A stretch of 25,870 bases of DNA from the IMG/VR virus record IMGVR_UViG_3300025018_000493, positions 1 through 25,870 of that record; one strand, 5' to 3'. A program made the position numbers and the translations under genes. Below the pieces are notes generated by a model that was not told where the DNA came from, did no database searches, and was given only the letters and a program-made list of their open reading frames with translations. Below are positions 6,491-25,870 of the stretch, in pieces (position 1 is the first letter of the stretch; each line of letters opens with the position of its first letter). The stretch is from a virus (Duplodnaviria > Caudoviricetes).

Positions 6491-7231
6491 ATGAGCACGA
6501 AATCCAAGTGGATCAACGGCATCTTGACGTTTTTCGATGGTGGTACTTTCGAGACGGTGAGGCCCCTCGCGCCGTTCGTGTTCGAGGATGACTTCGAGGG
6601 CACGGTCATCAGGACCACGGCGGCAGGCGTCGCGGGCTGGACCGTGAAAGATACCAGCGCGGTCGGGGTGGCCCTCCCTGCGATCCTGGTGAACCAGCCC
6701 GGCGGTGTGGTCCGCCTTTTGTTGGATGCACAGAGCGAGAAACAAGAATCGGGACTGTATCTCGGCGATGCCTTGAACTTCAACATCGACAAGGGTCCGA
6801 TCTTCGAGTGCCGCGTGAATGTTGCTGTCCTCCCGACGGGGCAGGCCGAGGTTTACTTCGGGCTCGCGAACGCCTACGTCGAGGGGCCGATCGCAGAGGC
6901 GGATGCGGGGCCGACGGTCCACGCTTTCTTCTGCCTGGACGGTGCGGGCGCGGTCACGGTGCATACCGACGATACATCGAACGACAACGATGCCGTTGCT
7001 ACCGGCGTCACCGCCGTGGCAGGGACGTACAACATCTTCCGGATCGACATGACTACCCCGGCATCCGTGAAGTTCTACATCGACGGTGTTGGGGTTGCGA
7101 CGGGTACGACCTTTGACATGAGCACGGGGACGAACGTTGTCCTTCAGCCGTTCCTGATGGCCCACAAGGAAGCGGGGACCGGACTCGGGACGGCGGACGT
7201 TGACTACGTGCGGGTGTGGAGTCCTCGGTAA
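6491..7231 (+). CDS. Probable head-associated protein with concanavalin/LamG-like beta-sandwich
   Basis: FEDDFEG near the N-terminus, YNIFRID...VKFYIDGVGVATG, C-terminal ADVDYVRVW; GAAGGAG RBS; position in head cluster. Confidence 0.6.
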   Translation: MSTKSKWINGILTFFDGGTFETVRPLAPFVFEDDFEGTVIRTTAAGVAGWTVKDTSAVGVALPAILVNQPGGVVRLLLDAQSEKQESGLYLGDALNFNIDKGPIFECRVNVAVLPTGQAEVYFGLANAYVEGPIAEADAGPTVHAFFCLDGAGAVTVHTDDTSNDNDAVATGVTAVAGTYNIFRIDMTTPASVKFYIDGVGVATGTTFDMSTGTNVVLQPFLMAHKEAGTGLGTADVDYVRVWSPR

Positions 7232-7291: not shown

Positions 7292-7738
7292 ATGAAAAAG
7301 TACCTCGTTGCAATTTCGATCCTTGCAATCTTCGCCGGGGTGGTCTACGCCGCGGATTCGTCGTCCATCGCGTATCGCGGGAACGATGCCATCCCAGATC
7401 GGTTCGGCGGGGTGATGCCGCTGGCGGGCAAGACTCCACGGACGACGATGATCTACGTCGATAATACCGCCAGTACGATTTCTACGCTCGTGGCAAGGGA
7501 CGGCGGGACGTATTTGGGCGGGTCCGATAACACGTTGACCCCCATAGCAGCCACCATCTCCTGCCCCACAACCGCGACGCGCTGGTCGTTCCAGACGACA
7601 CCCTCCGCAACGGTTGGTCATGTTCTCCCCGCGGACGGTTCGTGGCAGGTGTCGGGTCCGGACGCCATCGGGTATCTGAAGGGTTATGGGAACGCGGCTT
7701 CTGACAACGTTACCTGCGCCGTGACGCTCTGGTACTAG
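7292..7738 (+). CDS. Signal-peptide-bearing small beta protein in head module (putative decoration protein)
   Basis: MKKYLVAISILAIFAGVVYA|AD is a Sec signal peptide. ATISC...TRWSFQTTPSATVGHVLPADG resembles small phage head-region proteins. 2 Cys; GGAGGGG RBS. Confidence 0.7.
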   Translation: MKKYLVAISILAIFAGVVYAADSSSIAYRGNDAIPDRFGGVMPLAGKTPRTTMIYVDNTASTISTLVARDGGTYLGGSDNTLTPIAATISCPTTATRWSFQTTPSATVGHVLPADGSWQVSGPDAIGYLKGYGNAASDNVTCAVTLWY

Positions 7739-9684: not shown

Positions 9685-9866
9685 GGAAAAAGCTCTCGGA
9701 GATCACGCGGGCAGAGTGGATCGGAATAGTGTGGATCGAAGATAGCGAGATGGGCGGCGACGAAAGGACCTTTCTCGATGTGGGGAGGCGGACTCCCACA
9801 GAGGCGGCGCAGGCGCGGGAGGAATGGGATACCACGGCGGAGGAACGGGAATCATGCAAAGCGTAG
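9681..9866 (+). CDS. Hypothetical protein (61 aa)
   Basis: ATGA overlap with upstream ORF, GGAGG upstream, fills the gap before the methyltransferase. Confidence 0.55.
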   Translation: MRKKLSEITRAEWIGIVWIEDSEMGGDERTFLDVGRRTPTEAAQAREEWDTTAEERESCKA

Positions 9867-10468
9867 ACGAGATCATCAAGTTCGTTGAGGACGCCGGGTC
9901 GGACGATATACCGACGTTTGGCGGGAAGCGCGTCGGCGGGATCTTTGTCCAGCAGGTCCCCGATGAGATCGCCCCGTGCATACAGGCCATCCTCGAATCG
10001 GGGGAACCGATAAAATCATACCTGGAGATCGGGGTTGCGGCAGGGGGGACGACGTACCTGATGAACCACTACTTTCACCCGGAGACGATCGTGCTGGTTG
10101 ACACGAACGAACATCCGCGATGCGTCAACCGTCCGCAAGTGCTCGTGGGGATCAGGACGACGGAAGTGATCGGCAAGTCGGGTGATGATTCTGTGCGGGA
10201 TGCGGTCGTTGGCCTCGGGCACGTGTTCGACGCCATGATGATCGACGGGGTGCATTACTACGAGAACGTGAAGAAGGACGTGGAGATGTACGCCACCCTC
10301 CTTCGCGACGGTGGCTTCCTGATGCTCCACGACTCCGCTTTGCATCAATGGGGCGTACCCCGCGTGGTAGCAGAACTGAAGGAGAATCCCGCGTTCGCGT
10401 TCATCGGGGAGTGGACTTCGAAGACGATGACTTTGTGTGGAGTCGCGCTGTTTCAAAGGCTCGCATGA
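9854..10468 (+). CDS. Class I SAM-dependent methyltransferase (Methyltransf_24-like)
   Basis: Motif I YLEIGVAAGGT, FDAMMIDGVHYYENVKKD, LRDGGFLMLHD; GGAGG RBS before ATG 9854. Confidence 0.88.
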   Translation: MQSVDEIIKFVEDAGSDDIPTFGGKRVGGIFVQQVPDEIAPCIQAILESGEPIKSYLEIGVAAGGTTYLMNHYFHPETIVLVDTNEHPRCVNRPQVLVGIRTTEVIGKSGDDSVRDAVVGLGHVFDAMMIDGVHYYENVKKDVEMYATLLRDGGFLMLHDSALHQWGVPRVVAELKENPAFAFIGEWTSKTMTLCGVALFQRLA

Positions 10469-11199
10469 AGTTCTCTTTCGGAGTAATGACGAACGACATG
10501 ATGCGGTTGGACCAAGTGCTTCGTAAATCAGAACTGGATCCGGCCATTCCGTGCCACACGATAAAGAACCCGGACTCGGCGACGAAGGGGTTGAACAAAC
10601 TCCTTGAGGTCATTGAGGCCGAAGGCGCGGACGTTGCGGTGCTGACACATCACGACGTGTTCTACCGCAGCGGGTGGTTGAAGCAGGTCGAGGATCAGTT
10701 GCGGCTTCTACCGGAGGATTGGATCGTCGCCGGGGTAGTCGGCAAGGATCATGACGGGCATTACTGCGGGCGATTTCACGACATGAGGACGCCGCTGCAT
10801 TTCAACCGGACGGACGTTTCATATCCTCATCCGGTAGTCTGCTTCGACGAGTGCTGCATTTTCGTGAACATGAAGAAAGGATTTCGGTTTGACGAGACGC
10901 TCGAAGGGTTCGACCTGTACGGCACGATGGCGGTCTGCCTCGCGTGGGAGATGGGCGGGAGTGCTTGGGTGATCGACGCCTTCTGTGAGCATTACTGCAT
11001 GCGGAGTTTCCAATGGGTTCCCGACAAGATTTTCGAAGAACGCTTTATGTTTTTGCACAAAAGATTCCCTGATGCCCCACGGATCGACACGACTGTCCTT
11101 GGCATCCCGCAGAAAGGCGATCCACCCAGGTGGGATGTGGCGGAGGAAATGTTGCCTGAGCAAATCACGGCGAACAAGGAGGCGATGGCGACAAACTAA
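10465..11199 (+). CDS. GT-A fold glycosyltransferase-like protein (Glyco_tranf_2_5-like)
   Basis: SATKGLNKLL, VAVLTHHDVFY, WIVAGVVG, VVCFDECCIF, FDETLEGFDLYGT; ATGA overlap with the methyltransferase sets start at 10465. Confidence 0.75.
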   Translation: MKFSFGVMTNDMMRLDQVLRKSELDPAIPCHTIKNPDSATKGLNKLLEVIEAEGADVAVLTHHDVFYRSGWLKQVEDQLRLLPEDWIVAGVVGKDHDGHYCGRFHDMRTPLHFNRTDVSYPHPVVCFDECCIFVNMKKGFRFDETLEGFDLYGTMAVCLAWEMGGSAWVIDAFCEHYCMRSFQWVPDKIFEERFMFLHKRFPDAPRIDTTVLGIPQKGDPPRWDVAEEMLPEQITANKEAMATN

Positions 11200-17035: not shown

Positions 17036-17439
17036 GCGCCGTTGAAATGTACGATTTTTTGGCCACGATCACCCCCGACTATAACGCCGCCATCGGCATC
17101 ACCCCGCAGGGGGTGGTGTCGGAGGAGTCGGCGAAGAACGGCATGGTCCACATGGGCGCGGACGGGTCCGAGGAACGGATCGCGTTCGGCACGGCATCCA
17201 TCTTCTACATCACGATCGGTTGGAACATCCTCTCTGAAGCGGACAGCGGGACTATTTTCGACTGGTACAACGATTCCGCGAAGGCGAACGGGATGCAACG
17301 GTCGTTCAAGTATGCGTTTGGAGACGGCCACACATATGTGGTTCGTTTTTCTAGCGAACTGTCGAGGTCAGGGCAGGCCATGTCGCGGCTGTCCATCCAG
17401 GGCGTGCGGCTCCGCGTATTAGGCCGGGTGGTCGATTAA
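17032..17439 (+). CDS. Probable distal tail protein (Dit-like)
   Basis: Follows TMP with a TTGA overlap (alternative start ATG 17047); WNILSEAD..TIFDWY...NGMQRSFKY...DGHTYVVRF. Confidence 0.65.
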   Translation: MSAVEMYDFLATITPDYNAAIGITPQGVVSEESAKNGMVHMGADGSEERIAFGTASIFYITIGWNILSEADSGTIFDWYNDSAKANGMQRSFKYAFGDGHTYVVRFSSELSRSGQAMSRLSIQGVRLRVLGRVVD

Positions 17440-20400
17440 TGGAAACCTTCAGCACTCGCCAACTGGCCTGCATTGCCTCGGCTAACAAGACGGTTACATG
17501 GAATTTTCGCATAACCGACAACCTCGACAACACCTATTACTGGTCCACCGGCACGCAGGCGTCCTCCGGTTCCGAGACGGTAGTCTCCGGTGCGCTCATG
17601 GCCCCCGGTTCCTACACGGGGTCGGAGTGGGAGCGGGCGCACACGTTCAAGATCGTCAACTTCGGCGGGATCACACTGCGGCGGTCGAAGTCGGAATCCG
17701 GCATCCACGCGCCGAACGATGTCTCCTTTTCCATCGTCAACAGTGGGAACGTGTTGGACGCCGTCAACTTCTCTGGCGGCACGGTCCGCATCGGCCTCGT
17801 GATCGACGACGGGTCGGGGAAGGAACTGTGCGGCTCGTGGCGGTTCCGCATCAAGTCGGCGTCGCCGTACGCGCAGCAGATAGACGTGACGTGCGAGGAT
17901 TTCTTGCAGGAGTACTTGCAGGGGTCGTATCCGAACACGCGGCTGATCTCCGACATCTTCCCGGTGGCGGACGGGGTGGCACCGGATAGCATGTGCATTC
18001 CGGAACCGTATGGGACGGCCTACATCCCCTTGCGGTCCGTGTACGCGGGAGCGGCCCGGTACTATATCCTCGGCGACCCGGCGAACACGTTCACGATCGA
18101 CGAGGTACGGTCCCCCCGGGAACTCGGTGCGAAGATTACGTGGACCTCGGCGGGGTTCACGTTCCAACAGTCCACCGTGGCGGACGGTGCCGCTGTCAAC
18201 TGGCGGATGTTCCAGGCGATGATCGCGGATGGGAATCCAGGCATCTTCATGTCGGGCGACCGCATCCTCGACGTGCCGACGAAGTTCCGGAGGTCGGACA
18301 CGCAGGGAGATTTGAAGACGAACCTCCTACTGTATTCGGAGCAGTTCGATAATGCGGCGTGGAATAAATCCAATGTTACGGTAAACGCAAACGCGACAAC
18401 AGCACCCGATGGCACGATGACCGCAGAGCGAATTACGCCGACAGGCGCGGGGTTATCGTTTGTAACTCAAGGTGTTACTGGAATTGTCGGGGTTGAATAT
18501 ACTTTCTCCGTGTATGCCAAGAAAGATATATCTGATCGGTTGATCTTCGAATGGCACTCCGCTACGTGGGCAGAAAACACACTCACAGTATTTGATTTAA
18601 CTAATGGCGTTGTCGTCAGCGGTGCGGACGGGGATGGGATTACTCCGGTAGGCAACGGGTGGTATAGATGCTATGGGAAAAGAACCGCGATAAGCACTAG
18701 CATCTCAAATGCTTTCTTCATAGACCAATATCCAACGGGGGGCGTTGGGAATAGTATTTTTTTGTGGGGCGCACAATGCGAAGTGGGAGAAAGTTCCTCT
18801 CCGTATATTCCGACGACCTCTGCGGCAGTGTCACAGTATTACATCAACCCCGCCGAGGTGATCCGGAGGGTGCTCCGCAACATGGGGCTGCTGGATTACG
18901 ATCTAGACCTCGCCTCCTTCGACGTGGCGAAAGAAACCTTCATCGCTTGGAACCTGAGATGGAACTTCGCGCTCTACTACAAGGAGGACCGGAAGGCCGT
19001 ACTGTCGCGGCTCCTCACCATGTGCCACTCGGCCCTCGTCATCGGCGAGAAGATCAGATTGCAAGTCCTGTCGAAGACATCGCAGGCGACGGTCACGAAC
19101 GCCGAAGTCCTAAAACCGCAGGGGCAGGACGTCGGACAGGATACGTTCCGGTACGTGGACGCCATCGCGGAACGAACCTCCGACAGCGGGTACGTTGCGT
19201 TCCAGCAAACGGGAGAATCGCAGGATCAGTTCTTGAAGATCCTCGTTCCCGCGAAGTCGGCGACGGACGTAAAAGACGGAGAGGTCATCACGTTCCCGGG
19301 CGTGCAGGATACGCAGCAGGTCCAGAAGCTCGGGACGCTCTACTATCAGCGGAAGTTCTTGAAGGCGGCGGACGTATCCTTCACCGGCAAGGGAACGCTT
19401 CTCGCGTTGCGGCCCGACGATGTCATCACCGTCAACTACGCCGACTACGGCGGGTCGTACAACGTCCTGATCGACGAGTTGACGATCAACCCGGACGTGT
19501 CCGTGTCCATCAGCGCGATCCGCTTCTCGGAAGTCCTCGATGATTGGGAGGACCTCGTTCCCGGCGCGATCACCATCGCCTCGGACACGCCGACGACCGC
19601 GTACTCACCCGTGATATCCGGTCCGGACAGCACGCCATCATCGGGCAACCTTCCGAATACGCTTCCCGGGCGGCTGCGAGTCGGGGCATCGACAAATTAT
19701 ATCCTCCTGGAACCTGCGTCTCCCCTGCGGGTGTCGCTGTATTCTGCCGACACAGAGCGGTTGCGGATCGGCAACCTGAACGGGTTCCTCGGCTACGTGA
19801 CGGACCTGTACGGCCTCGCCATCGGCAGCGCGGCGAAGTACCTCAAATATGATTCGACGAACGGTCTGCGACTCGGTGGTTCCGGTGTGGCGCGGATCGA
19901 ACTGGACCTGGAACTTGCCAGGATCTCCGTGAAGGATGCGACCGACGCGACGAAGACCGCGATGGGGTACCTCAACGGGCTGGCGAAGAACGACGGCACG
20001 GGGAACTGGGGTGCCGGGGATTATGGGTTCTGGGCGGCGGCGGGCGACAACCTGAAGATCGACGGGGACGCCGTCTACAAGTCCGGTGATTGGATCGTGG
20101 AGAACGACGGGTCGTATCTGATTCAGAACGCAGCGGCACAGACGATTATCCGGCTTGGAACTGTGTCCGGCGTGAAGGGGCTGTACATTTACGATGCGAC
20201 CTCTCCGACGCAACTGCTGCTGGCGAAGTTCGCCACGGACGGAATCTTTATCGGAGACGCCAGCAACTATTTCGAGTACACAACGGCTAACGCAAAGATC
20301 CAGGCGGGGTATACGGCCCCAGGAGACGATGATACGACTGCGGGGGCGGGGCTGAAGATCGACGCCGGGAAGATCGAAGCCTATGGCGGTGATCATACGT

Positions 20401-20969
20401 TCGGCGGCACAATCATGTCGTCGGATGGAAACTACATGGTGTTGATCGGGAAACAACTGACGGCCACCGGATTAACAAAGCGATATCCGCTGAACAATGC
20501 GACGAACATGACGGCAGATGGGCAAATCCATCTGTATCATTTTGAAACTACGGACTGGAAGGAATTGCTGGACTTAGGCACCTCTACGTTCGGATCAGAT
20601 GTAGGGGTTATTGGGGTCAGGATCAGAAACTCTCAAGTTGGCATTTATGCACAGGACATGACTGGGAATTGTACTTATGGCGAATACATCATATTACCAA
20701 GTAGTGTGGGAGGTACCGCTGGCTCCGCAGGCAAATTCATAAACTTACGCTCAGGTGAATCAATTGGCATTGAAGGGACAGGGAAATACGGGGGAAAATT
20801 CTCTGCAAAAACAGGCGGTGAAGGCGGCCCAATAGTGTTAGCCCCTTCGACAGATGCACCTGCTCCCTCTCACTCTGCTGAAAAAGGAACTCTCTGGGCC
20901 ACCTCTGCCTGTGTTCTTTACATCAATAAAGACGGATCGACCACATGGGAGAAGGTTGGAGCACAGTGA
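17439..20969 (+). CDS. Tail tip / hub-central fibre protein (1176 aa) with inserted carbohydrate-binding-like domain
   Basis: IPEPYG hub motif, NPAEVIRRVL, LALRPDDVITV, C-terminal beta-rich fibre region (ERLRIGNLNG; KGTLW...LYINKDGSTTWEKV). Confidence 0.8.
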   Translation: METFSTRQLACIASANKTVTWNFRITDNLDNTYYWSTGTQASSGSETVVSGALMAPGSYTGSEWERAHTFKIVNFGGITLRRSKSESGIHAPNDVSFSIVNSGNVLDAVNFSGGTVRIGLVIDDGSGKELCGSWRFRIKSASPYAQQIDVTCEDFLQEYLQGSYPNTRLISDIFPVADGVAPDSMCIPEPYGTAYIPLRSVYAGAARYYILGDPANTFTIDEVRSPRELGAKITWTSAGFTFQQSTVADGAAVNWRMFQAMIADGNPGIFMSGDRILDVPTKFRRSDTQGDLKTNLLLYSEQFDNAAWNKSNVTVNANATTAPDGTMTAERITPTGAGLSFVTQGVTGIVGVEYTFSVYAKKDISDRLIFEWHSATWAENTLTVFDLTNGVVVSGADGDGITPVGNGWYRCYGKRTAISTSISNAFFIDQYPTGGVGNSIFLWGAQCEVGESSSPYIPTTSAAVSQYYINPAEVIRRVLRNMGLLDYDLDLASFDVAKETFIAWNLRWNFALYYKEDRKAVLSRLLTMCHSALVIGEKIRLQVLSKTSQATVTNAEVLKPQGQDVGQDTFRYVDAIAERTSDSGYVAFQQTGESQDQFLKILVPAKSATDVKDGEVITFPGVQDTQQVQKLGTLYYQRKFLKAADVSFTGKGTLLALRPDDVITVNYADYGGSYNVLIDELTINPDVSVSISAIRFSEVLDDWEDLVPGAITIASDTPTTAYSPVISGPDSTPSSGNLPNTLPGRLRVGASTNYILLEPASPLRVSLYSADTERLRIGNLNGFLGYVTDLYGLAIGSAAKYLKYDSTNGLRLGGSGVARIELDLELARISVKDATDATKTAMGYLNGLAKNDGTGNWGAGDYGFWAAAGDNLKIDGDAVYKSGDWIVENDGSYLIQNAAAQTIIRLGTVSGVKGLYIYDATSPTQLLLAKFATDGIFIGDASNYFEYTTANAKIQAGYTAPGDDDTTAGAGLKIDAGKIEAYGGDHTFGGTIMSSDGNYMVLIGKQLTATGLTKRYPLNNATNMTADGQIHLYHFETTDWKELLDLGTSTFGSDVGVIGVRIRNSQVGIYAQDMTGNCTYGEYIILPSSVGGTAGSAGKFINLRSGESIGIEGTGKYGGKFSAKTGGEGGPIVLAPSTDAPAPSHSAEKGTLWATSACVLYINKDGSTTWEKVGAQ

Positions 20970-20992: not shown

Positions 20993-21157
20993 ATGAAGCA
21001 ATACGCAGTACCTGAAAAATTAGTTAATTCGATCCTGAATTATTTAGGTTCCAAACCCTACATAGAGGTCGCCCCGCTGATTGGGGCACTCGGCCAGATA
21101 CAGGAAATCCCGCCCGCTCCGCTCGCAGTCGTCCCGTCGGAAAACAAGGGGGAATAG
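20993..21157 (+). CDS. Small phage protein following tail fibre (54 aa)
   Basis: AAGGGAG RBS; VNSILNYLGSKPYIEVAPLI resembles small helical proteins often found after fibre genes. Confidence 0.65.
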   Translation: MKQYAVPEKLVNSILNYLGSKPYIEVAPLIGALGQIQEIPPAPLAVVPSENKGE

Positions 21158-21412
21158 ATGGCGATTATTACTGTCCATCACGGGTTGCGGGTGCTGACCG
21201 GTGGTGCTGCTAACGCCCTGGATGCCATCGACGGCAACTCGCTTCTCGACGGGGACGAGGCGGTAGTCATGTCGGGCGGGAACTATTACATCTTTCTGAT
21301 GGATGCTGTTTCCGGGGCGGCAGAGAACTCTCCTTACGTGATCGCGCCGGATACAAATGCCGGGACCAAACGATGGATTCTTCAGGCTCCGCCGGGGGTA
21401 ACTTATGCGTAA
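21158..21412 (+). CDS. Stand-alone 84-aa domain resembling tailspike/fibre N-terminal attachment modules
   Basis: LTGGAANALDAIDG..L.DGD ... AENSPYVIAPDTNAGTKRWIL; AAGGGGG RBS. Confidence 0.6.
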   Translation: MAIITVHHGLRVLTGGAANALDAIDGNSLLDGDEAVVMSGGNYYIFLMDAVSGAAENSPYVIAPDTNAGTKRWILQAPPGVTYA

Positions 21413-22448
21413 AGTAAAAATAATCGGTGCAATCGGACTAACGCTGTTTTTCTCTCTTTTGTTTTTACCCGCTGCGGGGGCGATCCCCTGGACGTTCGAC
21501 AATAATGTAACGGTCCAGGGCGACTTGACGGTTAATGGTTCCTTCAGTTTTCCTATCACCGACAACACCATCGTGGACGCCGATATTAACTCTGCCGCCG
21601 CGATCGATGCCTCCAAGATCGGTGGTGGGAACGTATCGACCACGGAATATGATTACCTGTCAGAAGTAACCAGCGACGTTCAGACGCAACTGGTCGGCAA
21701 GCAGGCTGGGTCTTCGCGGCTTACCAACCTGTCCTCCGGCACGATTCAGGACAACACGACCATCTACGATGATATTGTTTTACGATTCGGCACCGACAAT
21801 GATTTCACGCTCCGGTATAAATCCGCAGACGCTACGCTGATAATCGCACTCGACAACGGAGACTCGATGTGCACGTTCTCCAAGACGGGGAATCTGACGT
21901 GCACGGGAGAGGCTACATTCTTACAGTACAAGTCAGCGGGCACCGACAATGCCTACGGCATAAACGTGATGAACACAGAGGACCCAACCGGGGCGAATCT
22001 GGAGGGGGGGCTGTCCTGGTTCAACGGGACTTCCAACATTCCGAAGCAGCGGAACGCCGACAATACGGCAACGCTGGAATACCTTACCTCGGGTATCGCA
22101 AAGTTTTCCAAATGCACTACCATCGACAACGCTGTAGATGAAAGCGATTATCCACTTGAACGGTTCCAGCAAGCCGTCACGATCACAACGATTAAGGTGT
22201 ACTCGGTAGGGGATAACGTAGTTGGTGGATTGGATAAATGTACTGGGACTAACGGGGTCTGTTCTTCGGTGACGGCAGTTGATGCTGATATTACCGCCAC
22301 GGATGGTGTGGAAGCGTCTGATGACGGATCGCTTACCAACGGAGTGATAGCCGCAGGGAACAGGATTCGTTGGCATACGACGAGTCACACTGGGACGAAC
22401 ACTTTCGTTCAGGTGTGCTTCGACTATGTTATGGATTCGGTGAACTGA
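21405..22448 (+). CDS. Fibre-like protein with Sec signal peptide (347 aa)
   Basis: MRKVKIIGAIGLTLFFSLLFLPAAGA|IP; phage fibre motifs IVDADINSAAAIDASKI and VSTTEYDYLSEVTSDVQTQL; C-terminal beta-sandwich (IAAGNRIRW); 6 Cys. Confidence 0.78.
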   Translation: MRKVKIIGAIGLTLFFSLLFLPAAGAIPWTFDNNVTVQGDLTVNGSFSFPITDNTIVDADINSAAAIDASKIGGGNVSTTEYDYLSEVTSDVQTQLVGKQAGSSRLTNLSSGTIQDNTTIYDDIVLRFGTDNDFTLRYKSADATLIIALDNGDSMCTFSKTGNLTCTGEATFLQYKSAGTDNAYGINVMNTEDPTGANLEGGLSWFNGTSNIPKQRNADNTATLEYLTSGIAKFSKCTTIDNAVDESDYPLERFQQAVTITTIKVYSVGDNVVGGLDKCTGTNGVCSSVTAVDADITATDGVEASDDGSLTNGVIAAGNRIRWHTTSHTGTNTFVQVCFDYVMDSVN

Positions 22449-22450
22449 CG

Positions 22451-23002
22451 ATGAGGAAACTACTTCTCTCCATCCTGATCCTGTTACTCGCGTCCTCACT
22501 CGCCAATGCAGACGGCGTTATCAAGCGCAGAGTCGGCGGTGGCGGCGCGTCCTGCTCTACGCAGTCCTTCGATGTACAAAACACCGGGGGAGCGACAAAC
22601 ACCGAAGTCTTCTACATCGAACAGTACGCACAATCTTTCAAGCCCGGCGTCACCGGCGATCTATATTCTATATCGTTTGAGGTTGGTACGGCAGGGACGG
22701 AAAGATGGATAGAGGTAAGGGTGGGAACTTCTGCCAATCTCACTACCTATCTCGTACAAAAAGCGTCTTGTGCTGTCCCCGCAGGCATCGGCTATTTCGA
22801 GTGCATGTTTTCTACTCATCCCACCCTGACTTCTGGCACAACGTATTACGTTGGGTTCCAATCGTCGGACAGTTGGATAATGAAAGATGGATCTGCGACT
22901 TATGCTGACGGACAGGAGTTCTATGAATTAGCAACTGATTGGGACTTCACTGGCTCGGGAAACACGTGGGATCTCAACTTCAAAACGAAAATGTGTGACT
23001 GA
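22451..23002 (+). CDS. Secreted-type jelly-roll adhesin/receptor-binding protein (183 aa)
   Basis: MRKLLLSILILLLASSLANA|DG signal peptide, GVIKRRVGGGG linker, YAQSFKP...LTSGTTYYVGF...DLNFKT; 4 Cys. Confidence 0.72.
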   Translation: MRKLLLSILILLLASSLANADGVIKRRVGGGGASCSTQSFDVQNTGGATNTEVFYIEQYAQSFKPGVTGDLYSISFEVGTAGTERWIEVRVGTSANLTTYLVQKASCAVPAGIGYFECMFSTHPTLTSGTTYYVGFQSSDSWIMKDGSATYADGQEFYELATDWDFTGSGNTWDLNFKTKMCD

Positions 23003-23009
23003 GGGCGCG

Positions 23010-25870
23010 ATGAGAAAACTATTATATGTTTTAGTGGCCCTGCTCATATCTTTCGATGTGCAAGCCGCCCTCCTCACTGGACAGACACCGGGCAGTTATT
23101 CCCTCCCGTCTGGATGGTCGCTGATCCGGACGACAGACTTTGAGGGAACGAAGCCGTCTGATGAATATTGGGGGCGCTACCAAGGAACAAAAACATCCGC
23201 GATGGCACATGGAGGGACGTACTCCGTTGGTGGGCAATACAACAATGGGCAGGATGATATCGGTTGGGAAATACAAGCATCTCCAGTAGGTACCTTCAGC
23301 GAGATATATCTGTCGTATTACGAGTACACCGAATCGCAGGCCCTATTCAATGACGAGTATATTATTTCTGAATTTGGCCTTGACGGAGCGAACCAGCGGA
23401 TCTTTATAGATTGGTTTTGGGCGGGAGATTCCGCTGGGAACATGGGAATTAACGGGGCATACGCAACTCTGTCGTTTGTCAACGAACAGGGGCCGCCCGA
23501 TTACACCATCTACCCAAAATACGCCGCCGTGCCGAAGGGTGCATGGGTACAGTGGGAAATACATTTACGGCCTGCATCCGCAGCGGGGGTAAGTGATGGG
23601 TTTATCCGAGTTTATAAAGACGGAGTGATGTACGCTTCCTCTGAGAACAAGTCCTTTAACTACCGTTTTGGAAAGTCGGGTAACTCGACCTATGTAGTTG
23701 CTGGTGGCCTCTATAACCGGCTCGTCTGGATGAATGATTATCCAACATGCACCTCCTGTACGGACTTGGGAGTCGGTACAGACGCTTGCACGTCGGGGAT
23801 GGACTGGTGGTATCTCCCGTTCAGTTCCCCGGCATGTCCCCCTGCAACTCCAAACTTTAATAAATATTTCGATGACATCATCCTGATGAAGTTAACTGGA
23901 GCCGGAGGCGGGTACGATGCGCAACCTCCTTACACGACATCCCATGCCCCGCCCAAAGGTTCCACCGGCGTAGATAACGCCACGACGACTCATACGTTCA
24001 CGCTGAAGGACGACCGTACGGACGACGAAGGAACAACGCAATCCACCATCAGCATGACTGGACCGGATGGCACGAAGACCTGCACGACGGGCACTCCAAC
24101 GCTTACCTGCACGGGAACGCCCGCCAGTTACGCGATCACGTATCCAGGGATGTCACTGACCAACGATGAGGTTGCAAATTTCACCCTGACTGCGACGGAT
24201 GGTGCGGGGAACATCCTGAACGAGTCGTGGAGTTGGACGGTAGAATCAGCGGCTCCATCGACCCTCTCTATTACCACCACGACTTTACCTGATGGAACGG
24301 TTGGTACACCCTACAGTCAGACGTTGGCCGCTACCGGTGGTGCGCCTCCATATTTCTGGTCTATCGGAAGCACGCCATATGATCCGGGCTACCCTTACGC
24401 ACCAAGCACGACGATTTCTGGCGTGGCATGGGATTATGCCAATGTAGTCACTACCGGCCCGGGATCTGACTTGTGGCATACCGCGTGGGCTGGTGATAAC
24501 AATGTGTACATGACCTGGGGGGATGGCGGCGGCCCGGACGGAACGAACTTGATGTGCCGCACCCGCTTCGGGTTGGTGAGGGCGAACGGAACGCCTCCGA
24601 ACTTCACATGGACGGAGATATGGGGCTGCAAGGCGGACGGGACCGGGTGCGATGATTGGGGAGAAACGACGCATAGCGCAAGTTGTGACGCTCCTTACGG
24701 GGGAACGCTGTCGAGTTTCGGCGTACCCGATGTGCTGTTCGCTATCGACAATACCCTATATGTTGTCACGACGGCCGTCGCGAGCGCATTGATGAAAATT
24801 TCCTACTCCACGGATTTAGGGCAATCGTGGACTTCGGCTGGGTGGACCTGGGATACAGCCACCGGGTTTAATCCTTCCGGAATTGCATCGTTCGGTATGG
24901 GATATGCTGGAGCCAGAGATACTTACGTGTATATGTATGGAGGCAAGGGCGGGGATCTAAAAAACATCTATTTAGCCAGAGTTCCAAAGACGGAACTCAT
25001 GACGCAGGGGTCCTGGGAATACTTCACCGGCACGGCGGCGTCTCCCGCGTGGGGCACGTGGGCTAATGCGACCTCTATCCACTACGACGCAAACAGGGTC
25101 GGGGAGAGCACTCCTTATATTTACGATTATGTTGCGGCGAAGGTTCAATATTTTCCAACGATTGCAAAGTACATCATGACGGTCAACGGAGGACAGATCC
25201 AGCAACTAAGGATCTATGATGCTCCAGAACCATGGGGGCCATGGACTACTGTATATTATAACGATTTGTGGGGTGATTACGGTGTTACGAATGGCCTGTA
25301 CTACAACATCATCCCGAAGTTTACAAACGGAGCCGATACCGAGTTCTGGATGACGTTTTCAGGATACGATGTTCCAGTAAACTATGATAACTACAATCTC
25401 ATCAAAGGTACGTTTACCTTAGCGGGAGCGCCGCAGGCACCCCCAACTGGATTGGCGCTTTCAAGCGGGGGGATCATCTCCGGGACGCCGACTACTGTGG
25501 AGACAAAGGCATTCACGGTCACGGCGACGGATTCGGGATCGCCGCCTGCTACGGATAACCAGGCGTTGTCGATCACGATTAACGCATCGACGCCGACTGG
25601 CGACAATACCGTTACGATTACAGCCATTACGGACACGTGGACGAATAGCGGTGAACCTGACAGGAATTACAACGACAATGTGAGTTTGCGGATATACCAG
25701 TGGCCGTTTGGGGTGGTGACAAATCGCTCTCTTTTACAAATTGACCACTCTTCCTTGCCAGCGAATATCTCTATCACCTCCGCCGCCTTGGAAGTGTACC
25801 TGACCGGCCCGACCACGGATGAAACTGATCCCATGCCCGTGTATACATATCGGGTCACGGGAACGTTGCC
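23010..25870 (+). CDS. Large multidomain secreted-type adhesin/glycan-active protein, 3'-truncated (>=953 aa): signal peptide, lyase/LamG-like sandwich, Ig-like domain, split He_PIG Ig with inserted DUF4185-like beta-propeller, DNRLRE-like domain
   Basis: Manual translation from ATG 23010 (GAGGG upstream) is open to the window end. Segments: MRKLLYVLVALLISFDVQA|A; GAWVQWEIHL...DGFIRVYKDG...YFDDIIL; LSITTTTLPDGTVGTPYSQTLAATGGAPPY; GSDLWHTAWAGDNNVYMTWGDGGG; YSTDLGQSW; APEPWGPW; DTWTNSGEPDRNY...RSLLQID.SSLPAN.SITSAALEVY. Missing from the ORF track because there is no stop in the window. Confidence 0.88.
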   Translation, partial: MRKLLYVLVALLISFDVQAALLTGQTPGSYSLPSGWSLIRTTDFEGTKPSDEYWGRYQGTKTSAMAHGGTYSVGGQYNNGQDDIGWEIQASPVGTFSEIYLSYYEYTESQALFNDEYIISEFGLDGANQRIFIDWFWAGDSAGNMGINGAYATLSFVNEQGPPDYTIYPKYAAVPKGAWVQWEIHLRPASAAGVSDGFIRVYKDGVMYASSENKSFNYRFGKSGNSTYVVAGGLYNRLVWMNDYPTCTSCTDLGVGTDACTSGMDWWYLPFSSPACPPATPNFNKYFDDIILMKLTGAGGGYDAQPPYTTSHAPPKGSTGVDNATTTHTFTLKDDRTDDEGTTQSTISMTGPDGTKTCTTGTPTLTCTGTPASYAITYPGMSLTNDEVANFTLTATDGAGNILNESWSWTVESAAPSTLSITTTTLPDGTVGTPYSQTLAATGGAPPYFWSIGSTPYDPGYPYAPSTTISGVAWDYANVVTTGPGSDLWHTAWAGDNNVYMTWGDGGGPDGTNLMCRTRFGLVRANGTPPNFTWTEIWGCKADGTGCDDWGETTHSASCDAPYGGTLSSFGVPDVLFAIDNTLYVVTTAVASALMKISYSTDLGQSWTSAGWTWDTATGFNPSGIASFGMGYAGARDTYVYMYGGKGGDLKNIYLARVPKTELMTQGSWEYFTGTAASPAWGTWANATSIHYDANRVGESTPYIYDYVAAKVQYFPTIAKYIMTVNGGQIQQLRIYDAPEPWGPWTTVYYNDLWGDYGVTNGLYYNIIPKFTNGADTEFWMTFSGYDVPVNYDNYNLIKGTFTLAGAPQAPPTGLALSSGGIISGTPTTVETKAFTVTATDSGSPPATDNQALSITINASTPTGDNTVTITAITDTWTNSGEPDRNYNDNVSLRIYQWPFGVVTNRSLLQIDHSSLPANISITSAALEVYLTGPTTDETDPMPVYTYRVTGTL

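Follow-up and report, generated by a model that had tools for sequence, protein, structure and literature searches.

Receptor-binding fibres of tailed phages are normally made without a leader peptide and fold in the cytoplasm, and the fibres or tailspikes of T4 and P22 can attach to finished particles in vitro. In the tailspikes of CBA120 and the gp37/gp38 adhesin of T-even phages, exchangeable subunits for binding or enzymatic activity sit on a distinct anchor protein, and all of these parts are leaderless and put together in the cytoplasm. Filamentous phages do have a receptor-binding virion protein, pIII, that is exported by Sec and disulfide-bonded; it remains anchored in the membrane and joins the particle as this is extruded, without lysis. 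Here we analyse the IMG/VR record IMGVR_UViG_3300025018_000493, an uncultured groundwater phage of the Caudoviricetes whose entire record of 25,870 bases is referred to as the window, and in particular three consecutive genes at its end, A, B and C, each of which begins with a predicted leader. We propose, with a probability of roughly 0.6, that A-B-C is a late receptor-binding cassette whose products are exported and dock on the phage particles at lysis. Such a cassette would resemble the branched receptor-binding complexes of CBA120 and the T-even phages, but its predicted leaders set it apart from their leaderless parts. It would also be unlike pIII, which stays anchored and joins the particle without lysis, and Pfam and PHROG scans returned no homology between pIII and A, B or C.

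Leaders were sought with a home-made, rule-based test that asks for a basic n-region, an uncharged hydrophobic 10-mer and small residues at positions -1 and -3. Four of the 26 window genes pass it: A, B, C and a gene at 7292-7738. The same test accepts no shadow open reading frame (ORF) at its first start (0/79), 1/226 over all shadow-ORF starts and 1/339 in-frame start codons within 14 core genes. The n-region, h-region and small -3/-1 residues characteristic of Sec substrates of signal peptidase I are present in all four proteins, in which neither a lipobox nor an additional transmembrane segment was seen; the cleavage sites of A, B and C (IPW, DGV and ALL) were placed by eye following the A-x-A rule. 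A preliminary description of this DNA had singled out the three cassette genes, whose ORFs, N-termini and quoted motifs were all recovered and which all pass the test, but it had overlooked the fourth. It had also named true starts lying downstream of the hydrophobic segments as a possible objection. B has no alternative start codon within its first 80 codons, which speaks against the objection for this gene; weak downstream starts do exist in A (TTG41 and GTG57) and C (ATG65). The start of A lacks a Shine-Dalgarno match but overlaps the upstream stop by 8 nucleotides.

The leader recurs among relatives of A. It is found in 22 of the 25 closest homologues and in 100 of the best 150 representatives of the C-terminal domain of A, termed 'WHTTS' and hereafter called the A domain. 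Loci were collected by scans with an alignment query, which was required since a single A protein found nothing in viral or genome contigs. These scans gave 64 loci (12 viral, 3 genome and 49 metagenome), from which five repeats, one of them the window, were set aside and loci without a called A gene were dropped, leaving 36 after dereplication, the window included. A leader was called in 22 of their 26 5'-complete A genes, the one in L057 being spurious and the miss in L023 reflecting a long n-region. Because many phages retain a leader on proteins that are in other respects mosaic, the export claimed in the preliminary description is well supported, and on sequence grounds we consider it very likely that A, B and C are exported via Sec. 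Lipoprotein-type leaders are found on cassette proteins of L010 (9026-10327), L021 (1540-2613) and L006 (9176-10327).

The order A-B-C recurs in tail or head modules of siphophages, myophages and podophages. Among the 34 loci with downstream room, the gene after A bears a leader in 28 and a B-type mature N-terminus, of the form G-x-V-I, in 19. In the window the A gene occupies the tail module's distal end, after the tape-measure and tail hub genes, and its place is similar in L001, L008 and L014: in L001 the genes ahead of the cassette encode a central tail fibre J and a short fibre, in L008 and L014 they are of the baseplate and tail-fibre-N types. Elsewhere it follows capsid-side genes (L004) or sits between terminase and portal (L049). 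The plainly myophage locus L014, in a metagenome-assembled genome (MAG) of Desulfobacterales, is the sole prophage-type locus of the A family found in a named genome, and the A domain occurs in only 2 of 401 genomes of the phylum to which this locus belongs. In L007 an A protein lacking both leader and cysteine (Cys) pair is a collagen tail fibre, and its neighbours are leaderless too. Leader-bearing fibre-, lectin- and enzyme-like genes are likewise present in dozens of other uncultured phages.

Two further arrangements were observed. In L037, L040, L043-L046 and L050-L053 a leaderless 58-amino-acid (aa) gene follows the leader-bearing A gene and precedes a 131-aa leader gene; its N-terminus is similar to the tag of B, and its product could be a linker between cytoplasmic and exported parts. 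In L015 (123-4405) and L013 (490-3082), cellular loci of Omnitrophota and Deltaproteobacteria MAGs, a long repeat fibre has the A domain at its end and is followed by leader-bearing genes. PF05065 is absent from the three MAGs behind L013-L015, with which other prophage types remain compatible.

Protein A has the composition of a mosaic fibre. It has no Pfam or PHROG match, and atlas feature matches all stay below 0.9; its 52 homologues align in blocks, and its relatives carry mutually unrelated N-termini. The stalk (residues ~33-134) is common to leaderless T7-type tail fibres, recognized by PF03906 and PHROG matches in P0039, P0043 and P0044, and also matches gp54 of Pelagibacter phage HTVC106P. 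In contigs of sequencing run X1, loose ends fall at module borders of A (21570, 21869 and 22117) and of C (25649), pointing to the coexistence of several swapped A and C module variants in that sample. The A domain serves as family marker: it has no Pfam or PHROG model, yields 2,258 representatives (50% identity clustering) at E 0.001 or better and 855 at 1e-10, and is C-terminal in nearly all of the best 150. It is predicted to be a jelly roll (predicted local distance difference test, pLDDT, 92), whose top solved match is the KHP40 cement protein (Z 9.5, root-mean-square deviation (rmsd) 3.1, 106 residues aligned), followed by XepA of PBSX (Z 9.4), the turret of an archaeal virus (9.2) and, from phage 7-7-1, the jelly roll at the C-terminus of its long tail fibre (Z 8.9, rmsd 2.8, 102 aligned); the best match among predicted viral structures has a TM score of 0.85. 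A Foldseek search of the PDB gave weak plant-virus coat and endospore appendage matches only, and a profile sequence search found no solved structure (best E 0.33).

B and C have the appearance of binding and enzymatic subunits. B has six homologues, most of them with all four of its cysteines. Its model is a beta-sandwich (pLDDT 80) in which residues 1-13 are disordered when B is modelled alone; the best match is a baseplate chain of phi812 (Z 12.8, rmsd 2.6, 143 aligned), ahead of an esterase domain (12.5), a capsid chain of cyanophage A4 (Z 12.4) and PHR domains. In P0012 the A domain is fused to a B-type domain that shares 55% identity with the free B of L028 but has neither its leader nor its tag. 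C has matches above cut-off to DUF4185 (PF13810, residues 573-751, 51.5 bits against a cut-off of 39.5) and He_PIG. DUF4185 has been identified as GH183, a family of endo-D-arabinanases with one active phage member (PMC10115798). The lyase-like call for the N-terminal domain of C comes from a weak PF14099 match in the L018 orthologue, where the region corresponding to the cut C-terminus of C is a CBM96; the GH183 module is missing from the L018 and L019 orthologues. No solved structure matched C by sequence. C-type proteins vary between loci; of the 28 neighbours scanned, 7 contain CBM96, CBM5/12, beta-helix or lyase-like domains. Complete ones, inspected by eye, have a short Gly-rich tail at the C-terminus and no membrane anchor. 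C is probably a modular protein that would both bind and cleave glycans.

Domains known for attaching proteins to virions are found directly behind leaders. L018 encodes close orthologues of A (77% identity over 257 residues), B and C, and the product of the gene before its A begins with a leader, behind which lie a region matching a tailspike head-binding domain of solved structure (7eeq, E 9.7e-6), a beta-helix and a K1-lyase C-terminal domain. The A-family proteins P0015 and P0017 have Mtd_N at residues 23-61, immediately after the leader. The leaderless 84-aa protein g84, encoded just upstream of A in the window, consists of a domain with which leaderless tail-region proteins of L066, L067, L069 and L070 begin. 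In L068 and in the L036 member of the A family, this domain is preceded by a leader. On these grounds g84 is a candidate cytoplasmic adaptor; an atlas feature search with g84 gave Phage_tail_beta leads only. When 112 mature N-termini of leader-bearing A proteins were compared with 695 leaderless proteins, nine matched, the pair L036/L070 being the only clean docking-domain case. A parallel for virion association comes from Cellulophaga phage phi10:1 (KC821618), whose gp091-094 are annotated in the record notes as structural by mass spectrometry (MS) and pass the leader test, while 13 other tested late genes fail it. The docking put forward in the preliminary description, by which the A family would be present on the particle, gains real support from these domains, from the virion fold matches and from phi10:1; if export is granted, docking on virions seems to us the fairly probable outcome.

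Four leader-bearing genes occupy the head-tail module of L068 (2499-8331). One encodes an adaptor-like protein (phrog_399, E 3.5e-15) and another an 881-aa protein at the nozzle position, without family or PDB match, so that core tail parts may be exported as well in this phage.

The cysteine counts of the preliminary description (6, 4 and 10 in A, B and C) are correct, and the short spacing it noticed is real: 14 of the 20 cysteines of A-B-C lie within 12 residues of another, against 7/53 in core genes, and 6 of 5000 shuffles reach 14. Enrichment of cysteines in the exported proteins was rejected, since densities of 1.7, 2.2 and 1.0% in A, B and C do not exceed the 2.1% of TerL or the 3.3% of gene 10465. 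Within the best 150 A domains, Cys237 and Cys338, located on the first and last strands of the model, are both present in 40, both missing in 109 and never found singly; the corresponding figures for Cys279 and Cys286 are 74, 57 and 19. These pairs are clade-bound on a tree built without the columns concerned, which implies few independent events. Further bonds are predicted between Cys156 and Cys166 of A and, in B, between residues 35 and 182 and residues 107 and 118. The comparison of homologues with and without leaders, advocated in the preliminary description, had a mixed outcome. Among leader-bearing A-domain proteins 56/100 have a Cys pair and 44/100 none; among those without any leader sign, some of which look like fragments, 7/35 have one and 28/35 none, six proteins with a hydrophobic N-terminus and nine partial calls being counted apart. 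Where the tree is free of pairs, members with and without leaders are intermixed. A second family, which lies upstream of A in L004, numbers 122 sequences and has no member in the window, gives a sharper result: both cysteines are present in 96 of 104 leader-bearing members, and of the 18 without leader three are fragments, four seem to have truncated or atypical leaders and the other 11 all lack the first cysteine (0/11). Members of this family were noted at L004 9125-9613, L010 8092-8556 and, by a weak link (25%), L005 6372-6788; mature and leaderless forms begin alike.

Because of the tallies in these two families, export would be the primary trait and disulfides an optional later gain in some lineages. 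The 44 leader-bearing domains without a pair exclude the view that export implies disulfides. The converse, that disulfides require export, was rejected as a general argument given the disulfide-rich virions of Milano and 7-7-1, and paired cysteines alone are therefore no proof of export. The formation of disulfides by the host Dsb system had been overstated in this respect and in another. DsbB was found in none of five surveyed genomes (those of L013 and L014 and three with related capsid genes, all incomplete and not proven hosts), which leaves a DsbA/DsbB route unsupported; MauE is present in three of the five and DsbD in all. MauE has been described as able to substitute for DsbB (bioRxiv 10.64898/2026.03.05.709764), making it the better candidate oxidase.

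In the mechanism that we favour, A, B and C would be exported by the host Sec system late in infection, and both their folding and the removal of their leaders would take place in the periplasm. Their disulfides would be formed there by an oxidase, MauE rather than DsbB, or by air after lysis. Lysis would then mix the compartments and allow the three proteins to dock on the particle built in the cytoplasm. A would be a trimeric fibre whose N-terminal module, apparently swapped between phage types, binds a site on the virion, here possibly via g84. Its C-terminal jelly roll would act as a socket into which B plugs through its N-terminal G-x-V-I tag and C by a short Gly-rich C-terminal tail. A bolder extension makes the jelly roll a universal socket capturing the short terminal tags of separately exported lectins and enzymes and serving bacterial surface fibres too, with widespread extracytoplasmic building of parts of virions and a trade of parts between phages and cells; we hold it to be doubtful. 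Were it true, the parts would be loose in the lysate and particles could acquire receptor-binding subunits of other phages or of the host, and host range could shift without any change in the genome.

Several observations weigh against a docked cassette. The A domain and leader-bearing neighbours also occur among cellular surface genes, in L013 and L015. A lipobox is present in 3/100 leader-bearing A relatives, and in L010 as well, suggesting a lipid-anchored fate. The N-terminus of the window A matched no known docking domain among leaderless proteins, Pfam or PHROG; the fold scores of the A domain are middling and tied with non-viral discoidin domains, and B matches esterase and PHR domains as well as virion chains. 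C is truncated in the window and a C-terminal anchor remains conceivable, while the tail hub has extra domains of its own and could bind receptors without the cassette. Searches with the A domain, C and g84 found no member of the A family in cultured phages, and the MS detection in phi10:1 is known from record notes and may reflect co-purification.

The strongest competing explanation is a secreted or surface adhesin that acts on the infected or lysogenic cell, through attachment, receptor masking or as a decoy, and never on the virion. Much of the preceding evidence speaks for it: the cellular loci of Omnitrophota and Deltaproteobacteria, in which the A-domain genes and their leader-bearing neighbours lie beside TPR, PMT and DUF11 genes, and the existence of lipoprotein forms. 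Published parallels are the MAT fibres of Bdellovibrio, which are phage-like and have signal peptides and tip disulphides (PMC10769870), and leader genes of Porphyromonas phages that were interpreted as outer-membrane modifiers (PMC10367356). However, head-binding and Mtd_N domains behind leaders have no clear use at a cell surface, the cassette genes are co-oriented and tightly coupled within late modules, no anchor was seen in complete C proteins, and the A domain is rare in the phylum of L014. The secreted-factor alternative already raised in the preliminary description is accordingly kept, A-B-like pairs being found in cellular loci too, and we judge it unlikely. It is still less probable that the proteins form a free complex, released at lysis, in which C-like enzymes cut capsule or biofilm glycans, so that progeny escape or gain access to new hosts, without docking. 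The late-operon position and the GH183, CBM96, beta-helix and lyase-like domains of C-type proteins would suit such a role, but a free enzyme needs neither a fibre stalk nor a virion-docking domain, and leaders are also carried by small structural-type proteins and by the adaptor-like protein of L068. That the leaders go unused as Sec signals, serving as uncleaved, cytoplasm-facing tethers or being bypassed by later starts in an ordinary cytoplasmic assembly, is very improbable: A lacks a Shine-Dalgarno match, weak downstream starts exist in A and C, the leader calls come from a home-made test and not from SignalP, and disulfides of tailed-phage virions are described in papers that, as searched, make no mention of export (PMC10811340, PMC12796354), but B offers no other start, canonical n/h/c leaders precede hundreds of unrelated mature N-termini, and the Cys pair of the second family separates leader-bearing from clearly leaderless full-length members.

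The features of the cassette and of the genes that accompany it are collected in Table 1.

Table 1. Coordinates of the A-B-C cassette, its domains and associated genes in the window.
Feature	Coordinates	Strand	Description
Fourth leader-bearing gene	7292..7738	+	148 aa, 2 Cys; no family match
Tail hub / distal tail protein	17439..20969	+	Leaderless, 1176 aa; phrog_5939 and phrog_1887 tail-protein matches
54-aa gene between tail hub and g84	20993-21157		Leaderless; no family match
g84	21158..21412	+	Leaderless 84-aa protein; 8-nucleotide overlap with start of A
A, mosaic fibre	21405..22448	+	347 aa, 6 Cys; stalk (residues ~33-134), swappable middle module with Cys156/Cys166, C-terminal domain
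Predicted Sec signal peptide of A	21405..21482	+	26 aa; rule-based test
'WHTTS' domain (A residues 234-344)	22104..22436	+	Predicted jelly roll; predicted socket for B
B	22451..23002	+	183 aa, 4 Cys; predicted 20-aa leader, disordered N-terminal G-x-V-I tag, Gly linker, PHR-like beta-sandwich
C (5' part, 3' open at contig end)	23010..25870	+	953 aa, 10 Cys; predicted 19-aa leader, lyase-like N-terminal domain, immunoglobulin (Ig)-like domains, GH183 insert
DUF4185/GH183 module (C residues ~453-811)	24366..25442	+	Inserted within He_PIG Ig domain

According to Pfam and PHROG scans, a single co-oriented HK97-type siphophage morphogenesis module fills the window, with terminases, portal, Clp protease, major capsid protein, connectors, major tail protein, chaperones, a 1343-aa protein at the tape-measure position and the 1176-aa tail hub, the last large cytoplasmic tail gene 5' of the cassette. 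Near-identical DNA is present in aquifer and groundwater metagenomes, 4 of 18 runs (one possibly the source) containing at least half of the window words; no RNA run was among the listed sequencing runs matching window DNA. Scans of the window for promoters and terminators stayed at or below chance and are uninformative on operon structure. Assignment of a host through capsid matches was abandoned, since these (best 49%, in 11/401 genomes, one phylum alone being searched) are not diagnostic.

The fourth leader-bearing gene belongs to the head-neck module, where it is flanked by capsid-side genes and by the head-tail connector. At the equivalent place a 143-aa leader gene of unrelated appearance is seen in L072, and leader cassettes in L004 and L071. 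A 246-aa concanavalin-like protein (weak Laminin_G_3 match) encoded at 6491-7231, after a capsid-side gene, is a possible head decoration. Between the tail completion and major tail genes, at 9824-11199, a Methyltransf_24 gene and a Cys-rich gene of 233-244 aa without family match could serve in virion or glycan modification; L072 has similar inserts between the same two genes.

The particles of tailed phages are generally held to be finished inside the cytoplasm, from parts without leaders. If the exported-then-docked route is real, the morphogenesis of tailed phages gains a second compartment and a final extracellular step, and bacterial lectins and glycanases that are disulfide-bonded and adapted to the periplasm would become available to phages as receptor-binding tips. 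It would also explain leader genes of late operons that are currently filed as morons. No description of Sec-exported fibres joining tailed virions was found in the full-text literature, a search whose coverage excludes most subscription papers, and such a route would then be without described counterpart in tailed phages.

The known systems each share part of this design. Phages of Porphyromonas gingivalis have genes of unknown function with Sec leaders; the Q-rule genes among them have been interpreted as modifiers of the host outer membrane (PMC10367356), and the window proteins lack the initial Gln. The MAT fibres of Bdellovibrio combine a signal peptide, a mosaic phage-like fibre, a variable beta-rich or TNF-like tip and disulphides, but they are encoded by the cell, and all 21 have a domain of ~130 aa after the leader and 13 end in S74 (PMC10769870). 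The window A, compared with MAT by description only, has no Pfam match and lies in a phage late module, and the A-B-C cassette is not a MAT member. In 7-7-1 and Milano, a trimeric fibre ends in a jelly roll that binds small proteins on a disulfide-rich virion (PMC12796354, PMC10811340), and the A domain aligns with residues 477-585 of 7-7-1 structure 9rkv (Z 8.9, identity 18%). Their disulfides, unlike those predicted here, join core virion proteins, and the term 'signal peptide' does not occur in the 7-7-1 paper (PMC12796354). In phi10:1, as in the window, a run of leader genes ends a siphophage tail module and is preceded by a small leaderless gene, gp090, and its gp095 is a pectate lyase. 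The record carries no remark on the leaders, and gp091-gp095 differ from A, B, C and g84 in being non-homologous, Cys-poor (0-2 each) and from a phage of a Bacteroidota host. To these systems the window adds a domain family spread across morphotypes, an A-B fusion, a pattern of terminal tags and counts that separate export from disulfides.

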